Below, piece after piece: positions 2,076-19,308 of a DNA stretch of 20,000 bases. Below the pieces are notes generated by a model. That model was not told the DNA's origin and did not search any database. It saw only the letters and a list, made by a program, of their open reading frames with translations. Each line of letters begins with the position of its first letter. Position 1 is the stretch's first letter. Made by a program: the position numbers and the translations under genes. The DNA comes from an uncultured virus (IMG/VR IMGVR_UViG_3300046782_000572) (taxonomy: Duplodnaviria; Heunggongvirae; Uroviricota; Caudoviricetes), in IMG/VR virus record IMGVR_UViG_3300046782_000572, one strand, 5' to 3'.

Positions 2076-2460
2076 GCCTCGAATAGGTGACGACCGCGCG
2101 TGCACCGGTCGGCTCTTCGATCCACTCGGTTGTCGGCACGATGACGCCGAGCCATTCGATGGTCACCGTCAGAAGATCAATCGGGATGAACGGCGCGCGG
2201 ATGCGGCCTTCGTCGTCGGCGCCGATGATGATCGCGCGGCCGGCATATGGCGCATGCTGGACGGGCAATTTGAACGCGTGGACAGGCTCGCCCCGCGTGA
2301 GGCCGAATTCGTAGACCCAGATCGAATCGTGTTCGTCGCTGATGACGCTGTAATCCATGTCGCCGCCCACGATGCGCCTCATGGCCACGAGCATGCCATC
2401 GTTCGGCAGGTCGATCGCCTTGATGGTCCGCGCCTCGGGATCGATCAGGTAGGCTTTCAC
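2068..2460 (-). CDS. DUF3846-like phage protein, 130 aa
   Basis: GTG start overlapping stop of 2457-2738; MKAYLIDPEARTI...MRRIVGGD...YAGRAIIIGADDEG. Confidence 0.65.
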   Translation of the reverse strand: MKAYLIDPEARTIKAIDLPNDGMLVAMRRIVGGDMDYSVISDEHDSIWVYEFGLTRGEPVHAFKLPVQHAPYAGRAIIIGADDEGRIRAPFIPIDLLTVTIEWLGVIVPTTEWIEEPTGARAVVTYSRPK

Positions 2461-2738
2461 AGCTCGGCCACCCGGATGTCGTCGGGGGTGATTTCGCCGC
2501 GCGCGACGCGCTCGTCGATCATCTGCACATTCATGGGGATGAGGCTGCGAACAAGCTCGACGTGACTTTCGAGGATTCCGTTGCGCAGCCTCTCGGTTTC
2601 TGCCGGGGTGTCGGCGCGAAGCGCGGCCAACATCATCGAGGTCAGATCGGCGAGGGCTGCGCTGACGACCACGGGGTGATGGCCGCGCAGCATCGGGGCA
2701 ATGCTTGCGACTAGGCGTGCGATTTTCTCGGGAGTCAT
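2457..2738 (-). CDS. Hypothetical phage protein, 93 aa
   Basis: Start and stop overlap both neighbours; paralogous fragment at 1940-2075. Confidence 0.7.
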   Translation of the reverse strand: MTPEKIARLVASIAPMLRGHHPVVVSAALADLTSMMLAALRADTPAETERLRNGILESHVELVRSLIPMNVQMIDERVARGEITPDDIRVAEL

Positions 2739-3118
2739 GATGAAATCCCCGCAAGGCCCTCGGCGAGGGCCAGCAGTCGGTGGCGCACGCCTGTGTCGGC
2801 GATGCCCACATACGCGCGGAGCATCGCGGCAGCGCCGTGGACGGCCAACAGCTCGGTTTCGATCCGGTCGCCGCCGGCGGTGTTCAGCTCGCCGAAAAAA
2901 TAGGCCACATCGACATCGAGCACCTTGGCGAGGATCGCCAACCGTGACGGCGCCACGCGGTTGGCGCCGTTTTCGTATTTCTGCACCTGTTGAAAGGTGA
3001 CGCCGATAGTCTTGGCAAGCTCGGTTTGCGTTTTGTTGAGCAGCAGGCGACGTGCCCGGATGCGCAGCCCAACTTCAATGTCGACGTTTGCAGGCTTTCC
3101 TTTTCCACTGCTTGTCAT
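2735..3118 (-). CDS. XRE-family helix-turn-helix transcriptional regulator, 127 aa
   Basis: VGLRIRARRLLLNKTQTELAKTIGVTFQQVQKYENGANRV, the typical alphaproteobacterial XRE motif; GAGAGGGG RBS before ATG 3118. Confidence 0.9.
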   Translation of the reverse strand: MTSSGKGKPANVDIEVGLRIRARRLLLNKTQTELAKTIGVTFQQVQKYENGANRVAPSRLAILAKVLDVDVAYFFGELNTAGGDRIETELLAVHGAAAMLRAYVGIADTGVRHRLLALAEGLAGISS

Positions 3119-3293
3119 AATCGAACCCCTCTCTTGATTTGAGTAGCGGCCGACGAGCAACGCAAGTGATCGTGAGGGAGAGCGAGACGAGAGAAAGAAG
3201 GATTTGTCACAGGGACATATCACGGATTTCCAAATATGGAAACAGGCATACGAAACCAAGATCACGACTTCAAGCATTGCTATTCGGCCTCTC

Positions 3294-4537: not shown

Positions 4538-5728
4538 TCACTTCACCCTCCTGATCGCGGCGCGCCGCGCTTTCGCCTGATCGGCAAAAGCCTGATCGAG
4601 CAGGTCGGCGGCCTGATCGGCGAGCGCACGTTGATTGGCGAGCCGCACGTAATAGCTCGCCATCTGATCGGTCTGGTGACCGAGCTGGGCGCGGATCAGC
4701 GGGATCGAGCCGCCGTTGAGCGCCAGCATGATGCCGGTGTTCTTGCGCAGCCCATGCACCGTGTAGTCGCCGGCGTCGATCTCGCGCAGCACCCGCTTGA
4801 TTTGATGCGAGAGCCCGGAACGCGTGTAGGGCTTTCCCCAATGGCTGAGCAGAAGGTGTTCGCCACGCCGCGGGGTGCGCTTCAAGATATCTTGAAGCAT
4901 CTTCGGCGCCCGGATGGTGAGCTGTGCCTTGGTTTTTTTCTGCACCACTTGAATGTGGGCGCCATCGTAGTCCGCCCATTTCATCTTGATCACGTCGGAC
5001 ACGCGCTGCCCGGTGCACAGCAACAGGTGAAAGGCGAGCGCGAGCTGGTCGGAGCACGCCGCTAAGAAACGCTGCTGCACGTCGGCGGGCCAATCCTTGT
5101 GCTCCTGGCGGACGCTGTAGGGCTCCGGCACGTCGCCATCGCGCATCGGATTCTTGACGGCGCCAATGTCGATCTCGGGGAGCGTCCTGGCGAACCTCCA
5201 CAGGTTCGACAGCAATGCCTTTTGCAACGACGCGCACGACGCCGAACGATGCTTCCGCTTGATGCGGTCGATGTAGAGCGTGGCATTGCGCGGATTGAGA
5301 TCGGTCAGCTTGACCGCCGCCATGCCCTCTTCGCGCATCAGGTCGAGCCCTTTGCGGTAGTTGTATTGGGTATCGGCGGCGTAGGGCTTTTCGATCAAGT
5401 CTGGCATGTCTGGCCGCGCAAAGAAATCCGAGCGCAGCCATTGCTCGATCACCCATCCGATTGCTGGCGGCCGATAGACGTCGCGGCCATCGATACGCTC
5501 GACCAGCTTGGCGGTGTCCGGCCTCGGCCGGATCATGAGCGATGGCCTGCCACCCGGCTTTGGGTTGCCGCCGTGCTTGCCGGCGCCAAGTTCGCTGATC
5601 AGGCGGTCGTATGCGCGAGCGAATTCGATTGAGGATTCGTCATCCGGCAAGCGCTCTATGGTCTTGCCGTTGGCGCGGAAGTAGAGGTGCCCCGTCTTCA
5701 GACGTTGGATGTATTTGCGCTTCGTCAC
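4538..5728 (-). CDS. int: Tyrosine recombinase / phage integrase, 396 aa
   Basis: Catalytic motifs TGQRVSD (R), QKKT (K), HGLRK (HxxR), LGH and C-terminal YY; GTGA-coupled to the excisionase. Confidence 0.95.
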   Translation of the reverse strand: MTKRKYIQRLKTGHLYFRANGKTIERLPDDESSIEFARAYDRLISELGAGKHGGNPKPGGRPSLMIRPRPDTAKLVERIDGRDVYRPPAIGWVIEQWLRSDFFARPDMPDLIEKPYAADTQYNYRKGLDLMREEGMAAVKLTDLNPRNATLYIDRIKRKHRSASCASLQKALLSNLWRFARTLPEIDIGAVKNPMRDGDVPEPYSVRQEHKDWPADVQQRFLAACSDQLALAFHLLLCTGQRVSDVIKMKWADYDGAHIQVVQKKTKAQLTIRAPKMLQDILKRTPRRGEHLLLSHWGKPYTRSGLSHQIKRVLREIDAGDYTVHGLRKNTGIMLALNGGSIPLIRAQLGHQTDQMASYYVRLANQRALADQAADLLDQAFADQAKARRAAIRRVK

Positions 5729-7293: not shown

Positions 7294-7493
7294 TGCAGAA
7301 CCTCCCGTTCGCTTTCGATCTCGGCGACGCGCGCCATCAAGCTCGTCATCGCAGCATCTCGATCCGCGTCGTGATGATGGAGAAACCACGCGATCATGGT
7401 CGCAAGCATGCCCTCGCGGCCGTCATCGTTGAACGGTGCCAAGATATCGCGCATGACGTCGAGATCGCGATGGACACGGCGTTCCAATTTCAT
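7290..7493 (-). CDS. Hypothetical protein, 67 aa
   Basis: ATGA overlaps at both ends; AGGAG RBS. Confidence 0.65.
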
Positions 7494-8638
7494 GACGGCA
7501 TCTCCTTCAAAAACGCGAGCGCGGCCTGGACCTCCTTCGCCATCTCGTCAGTGTCAGCCGCGGTCATCTGAGCGCCGTTGCGCATCGTTCTCGCGTTCGC
7601 CCCGGTCCACCACGTGTCGAGCATCGCGGCATCCGCGGGTTTTGCGGCGGCGATGATCTGGCGCACCAGCAGCTTGAAAGTGTCGACATCCTTGGGCGGA
7701 CGCTTCTGCGCCATGCCGATCAGATCCCCGATGGTGGGTTCTGGCTCGGCCTGCGTATGCGACTCTTCGCCGGCGTCGTGTTCGACCACAGTGCCGTCGC
7801 CGGGCCGCGGGTCGCCGGGATCATCACCGCCGCCGGCGCCGAACTGCTCAAGCGCCGCCATCGCGCTGCGCGGCTGGCGTTTGGTGACCTCCTTGCCGCG
7901 CTCTTTCGCGCCCTCGAAATCATACAATTCATCGTCTCGGTGCAAGAGCGCGTCGAGATCACTCGATGATGGGAGTTGCTTTGCGTGCCGGCGAATGACC
8001 GTTTTCTTTGCCATCTCGCCGTAGGTAACGCGGTCGTGCCACGGCCCGCCCTTTTTTGCGCGAGAGAATTTTTGCCTGATCTCCTCGACCTGGCGGATCG
8101 TCATCACTTCGCGCGACAGCGTGCCATCCTTGTACTTGCAGATCGAATAGACGTGTGTGATAGGGCGCTCGGTGCCGCCGGTCAGCGCCGGCTTATGCAT
8201 GATATGCGGCTCGTCGCCGAGCTGATAATCGAACATGTCGCCGTCGCGCACCTCGCATGCCCACAGGTCGGCGATCTCGCCAGAGTTGCGTGCCTTCTTC
8301 CGAATGCCGGCGATCATCGGCATGTAGGTGGCTTGGTCGCTGCTTTTGCGTTGACCATCTTCGCCGCTTTCGCCGAAAGGCACGATCGCAGCCTCGCGGC
8401 CGTCAGGCAGCAAGCCGTCTTGTGCGCATTTCATGCAGGAATTGAAAATGCTCTGACGCGTGCAGGCGAGCAGCTTCGCGTTGTTTTGGATTGCAGTCAT
8501 CACCACGCGCATAAAACGCTCGACCGGAATGTGAGCGGGCAACGCATAAGAAAACTGCGGCCCCATCTTTTCAAGGTCGCGCCGGAATTGATCGAGGACG
8601 CTGAGCTGCTTGCCGGCCGGCTTGGTCTGTGTATCCAT
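7490..8638 (-). CDS. recT: RecT-family single-strand annealing recombinase, 382 aa
   Basis: ALPAHIPVERFMRV...CAQDGLLPDGREAAIVPF...ARNSGEI...GPW...MAKKTVIRR; AGGAGG RBS. Confidence 0.95.
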   Translation of the reverse strand: MDTQTKPAGKQLSVLDQFRRDLEKMGPQFSYALPAHIPVERFMRVVMTAIQNNAKLLACTRQSIFNSCMKCAQDGLLPDGREAAIVPFGESGEDGQRKSSDQATYMPMIAGIRKKARNSGEIADLWACEVRDGDMFDYQLGDEPHIMHKPALTGGTERPITHVYSICKYKDGTLSREVMTIRQVEEIRQKFSRAKKGGPWHDRVTYGEMAKKTVIRRHAKQLPSSSDLDALLHRDDELYDFEGAKERGKEVTKRQPRSAMAALEQFGAGGGDDPGDPRPGDGTVVEHDAGEESHTQAEPEPTIGDLIGMAQKRPPKDVDTFKLLVRQIIAAAKPADAAMLDTWWTGANARTMRNGAQMTAADTDEMAKEVQAALAFLKEMPS

Positions 8639-8662
8639 TTTTTCCCTCCTGTTTGAGTTTTC

Positions 8663-8694
8663 GACGGTCCAGGCGCATTTGCGCGCCCGCCGCC
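8663..8694 (-). other. GC-rich hairpin at the 3' end of the pentamer array
   Basis: Minus-strand RNA GGCGG-C-GGGCGCG-CAAA-UGCGCCU-GGA-CCGUC folds into a two-part stem; shares AGGCGCAT (plus strand) with the hairpin at 11601-11630. Confidence 0.55.
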
Positions 8695-8699
8695 TTCTC

Positions 8700-9995
8700 G
8701 CCTTGCCTGGACCCGCCTCAACTCGACTTGCCTCGACCCGACAAGCCGGGCCACGCCGGCCTCACCAGACCACGCCGCCCGCGCAGTGCCACGCCGTGCC
8801 ACGCCCCGCATTGCTGTGCCGAGCAACGCCGGCCACGCCATGCCTTGCAGTCCAAGCACTGCCTCGTCGCGCCTTGCCCGGCCGCGCCGGCCGTGCCCCG
8901 CCACGCGCGGCCACGCCATCCCAGGCCTCACCGCGCCGTTCCCCGCCAAGCCGCGCCCCGCCGGCCAAGACCGCCCCGCCCGGCCTTGCCGTGCCGCGCC
9001 GCGCCACCCCCGGCCTCGCCGGCCATGCCACGCCGGACCTTGCGTTGCCGCGACCAGCCAAGCACCGTCCCGCCTCGCCGGCCACGTCTTGCCGGACCTT
9101 GCCCAGCCTCGTCTCGCCACGCACAGCCGCCGACATGCCAAGCCCGCCCCGCCTCGCCTCTGCCGGCCCTCCATGACCCCCGGCCTCGCCGGCCGCGCCA
9201 GCCCACGCCCCGCATCGCCCTGCCGGGCCTTGCCCGGCCGCGCCGGCCAAGCCATGCACCGCCTTTGCCCGTCCCGCATCGCCATGCCCCGCCGCGCCGG
9301 CCCCGCACTGCACGGCCTGGACGCGCGAGGACGCCAAGCCGGCCGCGCCAAGCCCGGCCCCAACCGAGCCGCGCCGGCCTCGCACGCTCCGCCGGGACTG
9401 GCCCACCCCGGCCAAGCCTTGCCACGCCGGCCAAGCCCTGCCTGGGCACGCACTGTTCCGCCGCGCTGTGCCAGACCGTGCCAAGCCAAGCCGAGCCGGC
9501 CCAGCCGGTGCACTGCCGGCCTCGCCAGGACGTGACGGGCCATGCCAGGGTCGGCCGTGCCAGGGCATTTCCCGCCGTGCCTTGTCTGCCGCCGGCCTCG
9601 CCGGCCAAGCCAAGCCGAGCACTGGCAGGCACAGCATCGCGTAGCCGCGCCTCGCTCTGCCGCGCCGCGCCGGGCCGGCCACGCCCTGCCATGCCAGGAC
9701 AGGCCAACGCCATGCCATGACCCGCACGGTCACGCCGGCCTCGCGCGCCATGTCCGATCCGGTCTGGCCACGGCTCGCCCTGCCTCGGCTCGCCTCGCCT
9801 CGCCTGCCGAGCCAGCCCATCCCAGGCCCGGCCATGCCGAACCCGGCATCGCCCTGCCGGGCCACGGCTGGCCTCGCCCGGTCACGCCCGGTCAGACCAT
9901 GCCTGCCTTGCCACGCCGGCCATGCCTTGCACCGCCCAGCCTGGACTTGCTCTGCAGGGACCTGCCTCGCCTGCATTGCCTCGCTGGCCATGCTG
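8700..9995 (-). repeat. Non-coding array of 5-nt GGY-NN units in about 20 segments; putative guide-RNA array (VIPR-like)
   Basis: Plus strand parses as GCC-NN/ACC-NN pentamers; 20 exact GCCGGCC 4-nt slips at 8755, 8828, 8886, 8960, 9018, 9077, 9162, 9188, 9242, 9296, 9338, 9373, 9426, 9495, 9515, 9591, 9600, 9674, 9734, 9915; clean segments spaced 5n+4 (54, 59, 69, 74 nt); directly downstream of the RAMP-like and accessory genes. Confidence 0.9.
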
Positions 9996-10000
9996 CCTCT

Positions 10001-10534
10001 TCACACTGCTTTGCCGCTGGGTCTATCGCCCGGCGGTTTGCGCCGACCGCTGCCGGGAGGCGGCGGCCGTTTTCCACGATCCAGACGTTCCCGAATTGCG
10101 AGAACGTCCGAAAGCAAGGCTTCAAATTCCCTGCTAAGATCGAGCATGTGCGCGACCTGCCGCCCGCGATCGATGCCGGCCTCAAGGCGCACAAGCTCGT
10201 TTTCGATGATCTGGCGAGCATCCGCACGGCGTTGCGCTGCTTGTGTCAGCGCAACGTAGCCACCGCCGACCGGCGAACGGGGATCGTGAACGTAGTAGAT
10301 CGCCGTCGCTGGCCGCTCGTCGATTTCGACAACGACACGAACCTCGCGGATAAGTCGTCGCGCGGTGTCGAGACGGTGCTCGTGCGCCGCGCTGGCGTCA
10401 TTCCAGTCGAAATCATCGTGCAGAAGGTGCGATGGTTCGCGCGCCGCCTCGACGACGCGCTCAGGACGCACGACGCCGTCCTTGTCGGCCAGCTTGGTGA
10501 TGGCGTGCGCCTTGGAAGCTCGCGAGCGCATCAT
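10001..10534 (-). CDS. Conserved phage protein, accessory partner of the RAMP/Cas7-like gene, 177 aa
   Basis: GVVRPERVVEAAREPSHLLHDDFDWNDASAAHEHRLDTARRLIR motif; ATGA-coupled to 10531-11544; the array begins right after its stop. Confidence 0.85.
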   Translation of the reverse strand: MMRSRASKAHAITKLADKDGVVRPERVVEAAREPSHLLHDDFDWNDASAAHEHRLDTARRLIREVRVVVEIDERPATAIYYVHDPRSPVGGGYVALTQAAQRRADARQIIENELVRLEAGIDRGRQVAHMLDLSREFEALLSDVLAIRERLDRGKRPPPPGSGRRKPPGDRPSGKAV

Positions 10535-11544
10535 GCGAACTCACCAATGGCTGGTGGGCGGCGGCCGTTTGCCTTCGCCGCCAGGGCCGCGGTTTTGCGC
10601 GGCCGTCCGGGTTTGCGGCGCTCATTGGATTCGGCTGCGGCGACCAGCTCGGGGACCAGGGATCGCGGCTTCTTGCCTTTTCTCGCGTGCCCACTCGCAG
10701 ACGACGGAACCTCCATCTCGCGGCGCCGCGTCTCGGTTTCGAACCACGCCAACAGCTCTTCCGACTCTTCGTCGTAACATATCGGCGACGCCAGCGCCGC
10801 GTCCTGGGGCTTGCGGCCCATGGTGCGCATGACCTCGGCGAACTGCTTGTCGTGCTCGTTGACCAGCATAAATTGACCGTAAGAGCCGGCTCCCTTCTCA
10901 GGGCGCCAATCGCCGACCCCCATGATGATGCCGCCCGCGCCAGCGAGGTTGGCGACATCGCGTTCCTTGATGAGGCTGCTAACGAAGCGCACCGGCAGCA
11001 CTGCGCACCACTTTTCGATGATCGCGCGGGTGCGAATGTTCGGCGTCTTGTTGATGCCGCCTTCGCGCACCACCGACATGAACAGCTTCGGCACGCCATA
11101 GATCGGGATATCAACTTCGGGGATGCTGGTGAGCTGGCCCACCGCGGTCTTGGTGGCGCCCGGGATGCGCAGCGCCGCATCGGTGATTGCGCTCTTGAAC
11201 GCGCCGGCCGGCATATGCAGGCGCGCCGCGCGGCTGTCGTCGCGAGTGCGATAGACCGACGCCTGAAACTCGGCGACCGGATCATGCTTCAACGTCGATT
11301 GTTTTTCGGCGTCGTTCTTCTTGCGGTCCGGGAAAAGCAGTTGCTGCCGCGCCTTTTCCGACATGCGGTGCATAATCAGCGGCGTAGTGCCGAGCAGATA
11401 AAACTTAACAAGCCCCATTTTCAATTCCATGATCTCGATACTCTCGGGGAGGGGCTTTTTCCCGGTCGCGAAGGGTTTTCCCGACGACCAATCAATTGCA
11501 TCCGATGTCGATGTCTTCGTTTCAGTCTTTGGCTTGCGTCCCAT
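10531..11544 (-). CDS. RAMP/Cas7-like RNA-binding protein (putative Vipr-type effector), 337 aa
   Basis: First strand LLGTTPLIMH, MPAGAFKSAI helix, RTRAIIEKW strand, Gly-rich loop GVGDWRPEKGAGSYGQF; AGGAGG RBS at 11551-11556; no other cas genes in the window. Confidence 0.8.
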   Translation of the reverse strand: MGRKPKTETKTSTSDAIDWSSGKPFATGKKPLPESIEIMELKMGLVKFYLLGTTPLIMHRMSEKARQQLLFPDRKKNDAEKQSTLKHDPVAEFQASVYRTRDDSRAARLHMPAGAFKSAITDAALRIPGATKTAVGQLTSIPEVDIPIYGVPKLFMSVVREGGINKTPNIRTRAIIEKWCAVLPVRFVSSLIKERDVANLAGAGGIIMGVGDWRPEKGAGSYGQFMLVNEHDKQFAEVMRTMGRKPQDAALASPICYDEESEELLAWFETETRRREMEVPSSASGHARKGKKPRSLVPELVAAAESNERRKPGRPRKTAALAAKANGRRPPAIGEFA

Positions 11545-11600
11545 CTGGTTCCTCCTGTGGGGTGCGCGTGATCGAGTCGCCTCACGCTGGCGTTATTAGC

Positions 11601-11703
11601 GGGCAGAGGCGCATCACTGCGGCTCTGCCCAACGCGGGGCCTAGACATGTCAGGCCGTGACAGGCCAAGCCCCGCCCGGCACCGCCTAGCCTCGCCACGC
11701 ATT
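11601..11703 (-). ncRNA. Orphan GGY-NN unit (13 in-phase pentamers) plus 3' hairpin
   Basis: 11639-11703 reads gccTA gacAT gtcAG gccGT gacAG gccAA gccCC gccCG gcaCC gccTA gccTC gccAC gcaTT; hairpin GGGCAGAG-g-CGCA-tcac-TGCG-g-CTCTGCCC at 11601-11630. Confidence 0.75.
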
Positions 11704-12642
11704 TCATTCTGCATCCTCCTTAAGCCGCTGCGTTCTCAGCACGCGAAAACTAGTCGCGGCCTGCAGGCGTTCTTTTCTGTGAGCAGTTTTCAAACTGACG
11801 CGCCAACCGTGGATCAGTGCGGCTTCGAAATCGCCGATCTTGTCTTTCAACTCTGTTTCCGCCTCAACCTTGGCGGCTTCAGCCTCTCTGATGATGGCGG
11901 CCTGCCGTTCGCGTTCCTCGAGAAGGAAAGCCGCGCGATTGTCGCGTGTCAGATCGATGATCGAGCCCTCAACCTCGCGCGGGTAGATCAAGCGCAACAG
12001 ATCGCCGTCGCGGCTGAAATCGAGTGCTGGCACGACGCCGGCTGCAACAGCATCCCAGAATTGCTTAACGGCGACGCGAAGTTTGTGCTCGGTCGCCTTA
12101 TGCCGCGGAATCTCGGCGATGTACGTATCCCAAGCAAAGTCGCCGACGACGAGCACGGCGACAGCGCCGAAGGCAGCGTCCGCGAGCATCATCTCGGTGA
12201 GGTTTTGCAAAACGATCCAGAGCGGCGGCGTGGGCTCGTCGTCGTCTTCGCCGAGCCATTTCTTCGCAAACGCTCGCGGGTTCACGGTTTTGGTCTGCAG
12301 CACGCCCGGCCCGCGCGGATCGCCTTGGATGACGAAGTCTGGGGTGCAGCCAAGCCGTGCGTGCGGATCGCGTAGATATTCGGTGTTTTTGACGACGTTC
12401 CATTCGGGCCGCAGCTTCGCGACTTTGGCGCCGATGAAGTCTTCCAAATCGTTGCCGCGACGAACGACGCTCGACTCCGGGTTAGGTCCGGGCAGCTCCA
12501 AGCCGCACTTCTCGGCATGCAGACCGGCGATGGTCTGCCAGGGATGCACGCCGAACAGCGCGCCTACTACGGACGCCGTCACGTCATTGCGGCGCAAGCC
12601 GAGCCACTGTTCGCGTGAAGTGATTGGAATCCGCTCGATCAT
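11704..12642 (-). CDS. YqaJ-like viral recombinase exonuclease (lambda exonuclease family), 312 aa
   Basis: REQWLGLRRNDVTASVVGALFGVHPW...RRGNDLE...LGCTPDF...LQTKT; partner of RecT. Confidence 0.92.
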   Translation of the reverse strand: MIERIPITSREQWLGLRRNDVTASVVGALFGVHPWQTIAGLHAEKCGLELPGPNPESSVVRRGNDLEDFIGAKVAKLRPEWNVVKNTEYLRDPHARLGCTPDFVIQGDPRGPGVLQTKTVNPRAFAKKWLGEDDDEPTPPLWIVLQNLTEMMLADAAFGAVAVLVVGDFAWDTYIAEIPRHKATEHKLRVAVKQFWDAVAAGVVPALDFSRDGDLLRLIYPREVEGSIIDLTRDNRAAFLLEERERQAAIIREAEAAKVEAETELKDKIGDFEAALIHGWRVSLKTAHRKERLQAATSFRVLRTQRLKEDAE

Positions 12643-17421: not shown

Positions 17422-17521
17422 TGGCCCGCATCCGCAGCATCAATGAATGGACACGGCGCTATCGATTGGAGAGCCCGATCGGGTTCATGGAGGCACAAGG
17501 AACGCCGTTAGGTGGTGCGCC

Positions 17522-18334
17522 ATGAATCGCTGGTTTCGGGTTTACGAAAACCTTCTCGACGACCCGAAGGTGCAACGTCTGCCCGGAGAGCTGTTCAAAA
17601 TGCTGCTGAACTTATGGTGCCTGACTTCTCGAAACGACGGTTTTCTGCCACCGCTAGACGACATTGCCTTTGCCGTTCGGCTCGATCAAAGCGACTGCGA
17701 TAATGCTCTGAAAGAATTGCAAAAACGTGGATTGATCGACAACGCTTCGGGGCGGCTCAAGCCGCACAATTGGGAGGGACGCCAATTCAGAAGCGACGTT
17801 TCAACAGAGAGGGTTAAGAAGTTTCGGAAACGAAAACGAAACGGCAGCGAAACGGCGAGTGAAACGCCCCCAGAGAGAGATACAGATACAGATACAGATA
17901 CAGATACAGAATCAGAGGGAAGAGAAAGAGTCGCGCGCGCGACCCCCCCTGAAACGTTTCACTGGCCGAAAAACTATCGGAAGCAGTTCGAAGATGTGTA
18001 CCCGGTGCAGCGGGGAATGGCTGCTGGTTTGGCCGCCCTCGAAAAGGTCAAAGGGAAAGTATCGTTTGAATTTCTGCTTGGCCAAATACGCAAATACGAA
18101 GCAGCAAAGCCGCCAGACCGCGAATGGCTGAATCCAAAAACCTACCTCGAACAGGAGCGGTGGAATGACAAACCAGCACGCGCCAACGGCAAGCACGAGC
18201 GCCATGTCGCCGACGAACTCGCCGAGGAAGCTCGCCGATTTGAGAGCCAGAGTAGCGGCGCGGCTGTCCGTGTCGGAGGCGCTGAACTTGGTGGGGATCA
18301 TGCTCAAGTCGTACCCGGCAACAAACCAAGCTGA
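17522..18334 (+). CDS. Phage replication initiator protein, 270 aa
   Basis: WFRVYENLLDDPKV...STERVKKFRKRK...DTDTDTDT linker...YP...NPKTYLEQERWND; AGGTGG RBS. Confidence 0.8.
   Translation: MNRWFRVYENLLDDPKVQRLPGELFKMLLNLWCLTSRNDGFLPPLDDIAFAVRLDQSDCDNALKELQKRGLIDNASGRLKPHNWEGRQFRSDVSTERVKKFRKRKRNGSETASETPPERDTDTDTDTDTESEGRERVARATPPETFHWPKNYRKQFEDVYPVQRGMAAGLAALEKVKGKVSFEFLLGQIRKYEAAKPPDREWLNPKTYLEQERWNDKPARANGKHERHVADELAEEARRFESQSSGAAVRVGGAELGGDHAQVVPGNKPS
17795..17961. repeat. Putative origin iterons (GAAACG) and (GATACA)5 inside the initiator gene
   Basis: Clustered GAAACG copies at 17827-17866, TGAAACGTTTCA palindrome at 17950-17961, GATACA x5 at 17879-17908. Confidence 0.5.
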
Positions 18335-18851: not shown

Positions 18852-19308
18852 CGACCTGCCGCTCGTCCCGGCGCAGTGGTCCGCCGCCTGGGTGCAGCGA
18901 AGACTGATCGAGGCCTACAGCGTCGAGCGCCGCTTGCCGCGGACGCGGCGACGCGCCATCACCAACGCATGGCCCTCGACGGTGGTCGAGTTCGCCGATG
19001 TGGTCGGACGCGCCGATGATGCCCGCGAGCAGATTCTACAATCCTGGGAGTACGCCGATTCGAGCGTGTCGTCCGAGGACATCACCCGGATGGAAGCTGC
19101 TCACGACTGGTTGTGCACGATCCTGGGTCCGCATCCCCAAGAACGGCTGTGCCTCGGCCAGTGGGCGACCGCGATCGCCTATCGCCGATCACTGCGCAGG
19201 CTGTTATCGCAACGCCGTTGGTCGCGAACCACGTTCTACCGCTACGTCACCGCCGGTGCGCATGTCATCGCGCTGGAGCTGCGGCAGCAGGGCGAACCTG
19301 TGACTTGA
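18823..19308 (+). CDS. DUF6362-like protein, putative late-gene regulator, 161 aa
   Basis: WSAAWVQRRLIEA...RRLP...AWP...ITRMEAAHDWL with C-terminal HTH-like SRTTFYR; sits at the antiterminator-Q position. Confidence 0.6.
   Translation: MRLSTIAIDSDLPLVPAQWSAAWVQRRLIEAYSVERRLPRTRRRAITNAWPSTVVEFADVVGRADDAREQILQSWEYADSSVSSEDITRMEAAHDWLCTILGPHPQERLCLGQWATAIAYRRSLRRLLSQRRWSRTTFYRYVTAGAHVIALELRQQGEPVT

Follow-up and report, generated by a model that had tools for sequence, protein, structure and literature searches.

A probable staggered VIPR guide-RNA array in a soil prophage, with one guide unit resembling an integrase motif and another matching capV genes

The window (the whole stretch of DNA that was analysed, 20 kb in length) matches the published description of VIPR systems point for point and is a further example of the system described in 2026 preprints. 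Segment 9497-9429 of its minus strand is very probably a genuine VIPR guide unit, part of a staggered guide-RNA array carried by a prophage. The complement of this unit resembles a motif of P4-type tyrosine integrases, and a second unit of the same array (9079-9021, also on the minus strand) matches, in natural sequences, capV genes of CBASS, an anti-phage system of bacteria.

A VIPR system consists of a RAMP-fold protein (Vipr), an accessory vap gene and vrRNAs of 9-16 YNNGG repeats (bioRxiv 10.64898/2026.04.26.720920). The NN pairs of a vrRNA bind double-stranded DNA while every third base (usually the wobble) is skipped, and the sites lie on either DNA strand (bioRxiv 10.64898/2026.04.26.720920). 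In staggered arrays successive vrRNAs share one nucleotide, the end of one being the start of the next (bioRxiv 10.64898/2026.04.26.720920, fig. S18 legend). According to the same preprint, internal degeneracy of vrRNAs is frequent, and a match of 80% serves as the criterion for a target (bioRxiv 10.64898/2026.04.26.720920).

The vipr locus and its staggered array

All elements of the locus lie on the minus strand, in the order short vrRNA tract, vipr, vap-like gene and 1.3-kb array, between the genes for a YqaJ exonuclease and RecT. At the upstream side, the YqaJ-type exonuclease gene (11704..12642, minus) is followed by a short GGY/NN tract of ~12 units (11636..11700, minus) upstream of vipr, which was recognised by its parse and periodicity and is a candidate single vrRNA. 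The vipr gene (10531..11544, minus) encodes a protein of 337 aa with a predicted RAMP fold (Cas7/Csm3-like) that belongs to no Pfam family. Its stop is overlapped by a vap-like accessory gene (10001..10534, minus; 177 aa), identified through conserved adjacency, and the RecT gene (7490..8638, minus) is located directly downstream of the array. The prophage around the locus encodes an integrase, DnaA-C-like, GapR-like and ParB-like proteins and an MT-A70 methylase; according to the domain annotation, the resident integrase (4538..5728, minus) has a Phage_integrase domain only. No tRNA was found in the 20-kb window.

Based on the modelled RAMP fold together with the genomic context, the 337-aa gene is probably Vipr. 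The AlphaFold model of this protein (pLDDT 79.7, pTM 0.69) gave 29 matches at E <= 1e-3 when compared to the PDB with Foldseek, and the best 10 of these 29 are all CRISPR RAMPs. Csm3, type VII Cas7 and Cmr6 are the leading relatives; Cas7-11 follows further down. For the sequence itself 1333 homologues were found. Related genome loci show a consistent arrangement: GGY-rich tracts with a 5-nt period are present beside the Vipr homologue, on the same strand, in 16/16 loci from many phyla (Anaerolineae to Bifidobacterium and Paraburkholderia), and a homologue of the 177-aa partner adjoins it in 14 of the 16. Approached from the opposite side, a Vipr-HMM match is present in 56 of 81 viral loci found by repeat pattern alone (loci of at least 3 kb, picked solely by an eightfold GCCNN pattern).

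The partner protein itself may consist of a winged helix followed by long helices, as judged from its model. Its fold has no PDB match at E <= 1e-3, with weak rows only for forkhead, PadR and MarR, and a word-based homologue search returned 2 proteins. The prophage DNA occurs in 24 soil and rhizosphere metagenome runs. Alignment of the 20-kb window to 401 genomes of one class gave short matches only (70-90% identity), and BLAST of the locus against phage records found only array-to-array similarity, with Mycobacterium phages.

The array (8683..9975, minus), as delineated by its parse and periodicity, is a staggered VIPR vrRNA array of 1.3 kb with ~262 five-base units and 23 one-base-short junctions. 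Within 8660-10010 identity at lag 5 amounts to 0.51, compared to values of 0.26 and 0.25 for the remaining window, so the pentamer periodicity is well beyond chance and does not represent local noise. A lag-3 (coding) signal is absent and the array is therefore non-coding; that all six reading frames are open across the tract is due to base composition. Parsing of the minus strand by dynamic programming (9975-8690) yields 262 units, in which the fixed part is GGY in 172/262 and the third fixed position is a pyrimidine in 240/262. Steps of 5 nt occur 230 times in this parse and steps of 4 nt 23 times. Most of the latter are GGCC/GGC, a junction found 20 times on the minus strand of the array. 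The junctions divide the array into pieces, which are 54-74 nt long where the phase is clean. Most of the remaining pieces reach up to 85 nt, apart from some short fragments and a single longer stretch in which other junction types occur. There is no recurring non-pentamer tail between the array units. An Rfam scan of 8400-12000 gave no hammerhead or other ribozyme (only a sub-threshold sX9 match, E 0.067), and a scan for promoters and terminators remained at background level.

Contigs from four other runs cover the locus piecewise. One of these omits 9225-9351 (125 nt, roughly three units), and the sole substitutions reported within the array convert one NN pair from CT to TC (9780-9781) and leave its flanks unchanged. 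Loss of units and change restricted to NN is the behaviour expected of a guide array, for which these contigs are weak evidence.

A guide unit that matches capV genes

The unit at 9021..9079 (minus), bounded by the junction parse and supported by its target matches, contains 11 NN (GA GG GG TT TG GC AA AA CC GT AT). Read in the vrRNA sense it spells DGGLWANNPV[M/I], the catalytic Asp (DGG) block of CapV-like CBASS phospholipases; the orientation of this unit is sense. For its 22-base pattern, read with the 1-nt skip, exact matches number 1 in viral_contigs and 30 in metagenome_contigs, against 0 in both collections for an equally long 22-base pattern of the unit at 9497-9429. Of these 31 sites, 30 are in frame, the skipped base falling on the wobble position (27 distinct 32-mers), and the remaining one (L197) contains a stop. 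A single guide of 11 codons fits 30 genes in which the wobble bases differ freely, and the codon-phased code works for at least this one unit of the array.

The matched ORF is annotated by PADLOC as a CBASS 'Effector Phospholipase' in 29/30 metagenome matches. A cyclase, E2, E1-E2 or JAB gene is present on the same stretch in at least 23 of these 29 loci, which is a lower bound given that 88/109 same-strand ORFs were scanned. The matching viral contig (G803) carries a capV-like patatin, a DncV-like cyclase, an E1-E2 protein and a JAB protein beside an integrase. With up to one mismatch allowed, the unit was found in 5/381 genomes, from one alphaproteobacterial order, and the reversed control in 0. 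Matched capV genes occur in two CBASS layouts (cyclase-E2-capV and capV-cyclase-E1E2-JAB); since the peptide is invariant and the guide reads no more than the first two positions of its codons, the match is exact across both operon layouts, and synonymous changes would offer no escape.

The match reaches from junction to junction, by which the parse of the array is independently confirmed. Four of the 12 fixed trinucleotides in this unit are non-GGY (GAC, TGC, GTC, CGC), and yet it has 31 perfect natural sites. We are confident that capV is the sequence target of the unit. The combined claim, that capV is targeted and that the purpose is counter-defence (silencing the CBASS of either the host or a rival element), is more tentative and in our view falls just short of an even chance. 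No other units of the array converge on the CBASS contig or the CBASS loci.

Concerning the remaining units, no self-target above shuffles was found in the window for 15/16 parsed units; the only exception is unit 8830-8776, with 16/20 bases at 19199-19228 (uncorrected p about 0.005). The 10 NN of unit 8962-8889 gave 0 viral matches. Neither guide 9497-9429 nor guide 9079-9021 was found in 156 other loci. Unit 8757-8683 was considered as a guide for the VPFGE motif of RecT and rejected, as its 17/28 bases are no better than shuffles.

The unit at 9429..9497 and its likeness to integrases

The plus strand at 9430-9494 reads GCCAA GCCCT GCCTG GGCAC GCACT GTTCC GCCGC GCTGT GCCAG ACCGT GCCAA GCCAA GCCGA, and the 13 in-phase pentamers with their NN (AA CT TG AC CT CC GC GT AG GT AA AA GA) are letter for letter those given in the preliminary description. 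The fixed part of these pentamers is GCC in 8/13. Read on the minus strand, the unit 9497-9429 is GGC-TC GGC-TT GGC-TT GGC-AC GGT-CT GGC-AC AGC-GC GGC-GG AAC-AG TGC-GT GCC-CA GGC-AG GGC-TT GGC-C. Its fixed trinucleotides are GGY in 10/14; the 4/14 that are non-GGY (AGC, AAC, TGC, GCC) are central, and the third fixed base is a pyrimidine in 14/14. The junction-bounded parse defines it as one complete vrRNA guide of 69 nt (9429..9497, minus) with 14 fixed trinucleotides and 13 variable NN. Both of its ends are the 4-nt junction GGCC/GGC (plus-strand positions 9495-9501 and 9426-9432), so the 13 pentamers form the whole unit and no arbitrary slice. A conserved 3' tail was not seen for this unit.

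Decoding NN as codon bases 1-2 with the third base skipped, as had been done before, is legitimate and equals the 1-nt-skip rule published for VIPR. The complement of the unit then spells K-L-W-T-L-P-A-V-[R/S]-V-K-N-[D/E]. Judged by sequence, this peptide is a variant form of the lysine motif in the beta-hairpin of P4-type tyrosine integrases, and the likeness is genuine at the family level. The confidence that we place in the guide unit does not cover an integrase target.

In exact form, the earlier claim of an anti-integrase guide fails: with 11 NN held exact, the pattern of 9430-9494 gave 0 matches in viral_contigs, genome_contigs and metagenome_contigs, and hence no integrase match above background. 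In viral_contigs, 0 matches were also obtained for both 9-NN halves of the unit and for a 23-base form in which the positions of highest variability were freed. All 26 bases with up to 3 mismatches were found in 0/5 and 0/401 genomes. The 16-base core has 8 matches in viral_contigs, which are chance-like and none of them integrase-like. Within the 20-kb window no target scores above shuffles; the resident integrase does have HIQVVQKKT, as previously described (residue 258 of the 4538-5728 product), and this site matches the guide at only 4-10/26 read bases.

Two kinds of integrases were compared to the guide. Among 14 loci fetched via Arm-DNA-bind_3, without use of the guide, P4-type integrases at 2 carry VWTVPAARMKGK and IWTVPGERMKAK; these match the guide at 15-16/26 bases, where the background is 14-17. 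A relaxed pattern, in which the variable positions were wildcards and the Arg/Ser (AG) codon could begin with either A or C, was found with up to 2 mismatches in 1/401 and 2/401 genomes (3 sites in 802), and its reversed-pattern controls in 0. All three sites are in frame on K/Q-[LV]-W-T-I-P-A-x-R-M-K, namely QLWTIPASRMKMD, KVWTIPAERMKNG and KLWTIPASRMKTK (19, 20 and 19 of 26 guide bases, respectively), and in 3/3 the protein has Arm-DNA-bind_3, Phage_int_M and Phage_integrase, although the integrase nature of these matches is partly built in, as the relaxed pattern retains the motif letters. The best integrase match to the unit is 20/26 (77%, L219), with L218 and L220 at 19/26, all under the 80% criterion. 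The CT, AG and GT of the guide correspond in the three nearest integrases to AT (Ile), CG (Arg) and AT (Met), respectively. The shuffle result of 0.1% for the integrase match is circular, as L218 was found with the guide. Summarizing the earlier claim of integrase likeness, the motif holds at the family level in P4-type integrases and a gene match at 80% is not found.

As the target of the unit, the leading candidate is the integrase, as yet unsampled, of some co-resident integrative element. Since no gene was found that matches at 80% or more, we put this at about an even chance. For such a target a partial parallel is available: the SUSP1 vrRNA4 guide is directed at the catalytic core of the recombinase by which a satellite excises (bioRxiv 10.64898/2026.10.15.759431). 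In both cases a phage guide would address codon positions 1-2 of the catalytic region of a recombinase, and the proposed purpose, immobilising a competing integrative element, would be held in common. For SUSP1 vrRNA4, that preprint reports a target that is demonstrated in 119 satellites and has been put to an in vivo test, whereas the best natural match here is 77%; the family also differs, as it would be a P4-type tyrosine integrase in our case.

The preliminary description counted two guides against foreign integrases, both antisense, and deduced from these a selection against co-resident integrative elements such as satellites. A second anti-integrase guide was not found among 15 parsed units compared to 4 integrases, and the antisense orientation carries no weight, as VIPR binds either DNA strand and the CapV unit is sense. 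Selection against co-resident satellites is plausible by analogy only.

Alternatively, the unit may be a functional VIPR guide whose true target is an unsampled gene or a non-coding site, in which case the integrase likeness would be an after-the-fact coincidence. We give this an appreciable probability, though somewhat below an even one. It would account for the observations that no integrase attains 80%, that every exact search is empty and that the 16-base core, present 8 times in viral_contigs, never falls in an integrase. Integrases picked without the guide score at background, and the matches of the relaxed pattern were bound to be integrases given the motif letters it kept. Coincidence is more difficult to reconcile with the chance of finding W-T-[ILVM]-P-[AGS]-x-R-[MVTIL]-K anywhere in the array, in either reading, which is about 2e-5 for the whole array when calculated from its dinucleotide composition and leaving aside other motifs that a reader might recognise. 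Flanking residues outside the core also agree with the guide (K-L precedes W in L220, N follows K in L219), and anti-recombinase guides have a printed precedent (bioRxiv 10.64898/2026.10.15.759431). On the other hand, the only validated guide of the array targets a defence gene and no mobile-element gene.

It is improbable that the unit has decayed or lost its activity and is retained as array filler, its central AGC, AAC, TGC and GCC being poorly bound by Vipr. Such decay might be suspected from the 4/14 fixed trinucleotides off GGY and from the fact that no target was found, but the validated CapV unit, with 4/12 non-GGY, matches 31 natural sites perfectly, so the 4/14 are no sign of decay. 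In addition, the third fixed base is a pyrimidine throughout, and frequent degeneracy of vrRNAs is reported (bioRxiv 10.64898/2026.04.26.720920). A tract without any guide, being a DNA-level repeat (protein-binding iterons, an origin or a centromere-like site) or an odd coding region, might fit the six open frames and the position within a replication and recombination module, but is already contradicted by the absent lag-3 signal with open frames explained by base composition, by the strand-specific GGY tracts that accompany Vipr homologues in 16/16 genomes and by the one unit that spells a foreign protein motif, wobble bases free, in 30 genes, which is not the behaviour of a repeat that binds protein as DNA.

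Comparison with described systems and implications

Like the systems of the VIPR preprint, the locus combines a RAMP-fold Vipr gene and an adjoining accessory gene with same-strand GGY/NN pentamers in a prophage host, and successive units overlap by one base as in the staggered arrays described there. The 11 and 13 variable dinucleotides of the two units examined fit the published range of 9-16 repeats, and the 1-nt skip, as seen at the natural sites of the CapV unit, is as in published VIPR aligned to wobble positions without self-target. Differences are found as well. At 337 aa the Vipr protein exceeds the published type II exemplars (about 20 kD) in size, and compared to published VIPR the array is very long, with about 20 units in 1.3 kb and GGCC/GGC as junction. 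Type II VIPR, as published, has an invariable structured 3' tail, whereas our array has neither a tail nor a ribozyme. The missing 3' tail speaks against type II but not against VIPR, as we read staggered arrays as needing none. TRAP-like RNA binding, RecT loading sites and Rho utilisation sites were dropped as explanations after the VIPR preprint was found.

As modelled, the 337-aa protein has the fold of class 1 CRISPR RAMPs (Csm3, Cas7, Cmr6), for which Foldseek gave E values from 3.6e-5 to 1e-3 and TM values, normalised to the target, of up to 0.55. In contrast to class 1 CRISPR, the locus has no CRISPR repeats or other cas genes, and the guide information resides in dinucleotides of a 5-nt repeat whereas CRISPR uses a contiguous spacer.

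Following the 2026 preprints, the array would be transcribed together with vipr and vap and the RNA cut at the one-base-short GGCC/GGC junctions. Vipr protomers would then polymerise along each RNA, gripping every GGY and exposing the NN pairs. These pairs would bind double-stranded DNA, two bases being read and the third skipped, and transcription of the bound gene would be blocked. Our own observations comprise the modelled fold of the 337-aa product, the conserved pairing of its gene with the 177-aa gene, the strand specificity and punctuation of the array, and the perfect codon-phased natural targets of one unit.

The VIPR system, its staggered layout and the tactic of guides on recombinase codons are already in print. 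A phage VIPR guide on a CBASS effector was not found in print, in a search that covered main texts. No literature was found that contains both 'vrRNA' and 'CBASS', on which supplementary target tables may bear. Likewise, 'CBASS' is absent from the main text of the VIPR-related preprints that were searched for it, and neither 'phospholipase' nor 'anti-defense' occurs in the main text of those searched for these words. The array demonstrates the gapped code cleanly in natural sequences, in a setting other than Enterobacteria and Pseudomonas.

The data on the CapV unit suggest a counter-defence role, in which the 9079-9021 guide would bind capV at the catalytic DGG motif and silence the CBASS operon. 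The proposed outcome, a phage that neutralises CBASS, is the same as for the protein anti-CBASS factors of phages; these sequester or degrade the signal, whereas the CapV guide would silence the effector gene by RNA. Under a counter-defence role, temperate phages would use VIPR arrays against host defence besides rival phages and satellites, and unit 9497-9429 would be a second 'catalytic-motif' guide of the same arsenal, aimed at integrases. If it is true that phages silence immune genes by programmable RNA guides, this would constitute a new class of anti-defence, and the proposed role of VIPR would widen from inter-virus conflict to virus-host conflict.

Probable VIPR in mycobacteriophages

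Mycobacterium phage DRBy19 (NC_051650.1) holds a GCCNN array of 260 bp located 5' of gene 52, and the ORF containing this gene is matched by the profile built for the RAMP-fold Vipr protein (profile search, E 2.6e-23). The array and gene 52 region covers positions 2990-3260 and 2262-3260 of the DRBy19 locus (L001), around genes 51-52; gene 51 itself is a hypothetical-protein annotation laid over part of the GCCNN array. The array of the window is also matched by the Cheoctovirus relatives Philus, Saal and Gorge. Given the GCCNN array, the profile match at gene 52 and these matching relatives, VIPR appears, as judged from sequence, to be carried by DRBy19 and its Cheoctovirus relatives.

The array and other genes of the window

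Contigs from metagenome runs covering the array locus differ from the window at two places. In run X22 a single contig fuses 9225 to 9351, by which 125 nt (roughly three guide units) are missing; this suggests array-length polymorphism, or else collapsing of repeats in the assembly. The NN pair at 9780-9781 changes from CT to TC in three runs (the sole substitutions reported within the array), with identical fixed bases on either side. Also within the array, at 9717-9794, Rfam gives a sub-threshold match to the Xanthomonas sRNA sX9. It scores 26 bits where the gathering score is 44, and an artefact of composition is its most probable explanation. Of the 20 read bases of guide unit 8776-8830, 16 (80%) agree with 19199-19228 (minus strand). 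Shuffled sequences reach this level in 0.5% of cases, before any correction for the 16 units compared; region 19199-19228 could be a near-self site for this unit, or a chance match.

Outside the array, a 412-aa ORF at 13557-14795 matches HNH-endonuclease PHROGs (residues 66-240) and a RuvC-like resolvase (residues 248-397), and by these matches may represent an HNH/RuvC-like fusion. A perfect (AGATAC)x5.5 repeat at 17878-17910, coding for a TDTDTD run, lies within the replication-initiator-like gene 17447-18334. Two DUF3846 proteins are encoded side by side at 1581-2811, left of the integrase gene, in DNA that may belong to the host or to a different element.

Surroundings of the matched capV genes

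Some of the capV genes matched by the CapV guide (unit 9079-9021) have a defence-island context: the matched gene adjoins a WYL regulator gene at two loci (L201 and L208) and the gene for the BREX protein BrxL at a third (L203). Viral record G803, a 21-kb contig, contains a full type II CBASS operon (L179 4206-10226; capV-like patatin, DncV-like cyclase, E1-E2 and JAB) beside an integrase. Since operon and integrase adjoin on a viral contig, the target of the CapV guide can itself travel on a mobile element.
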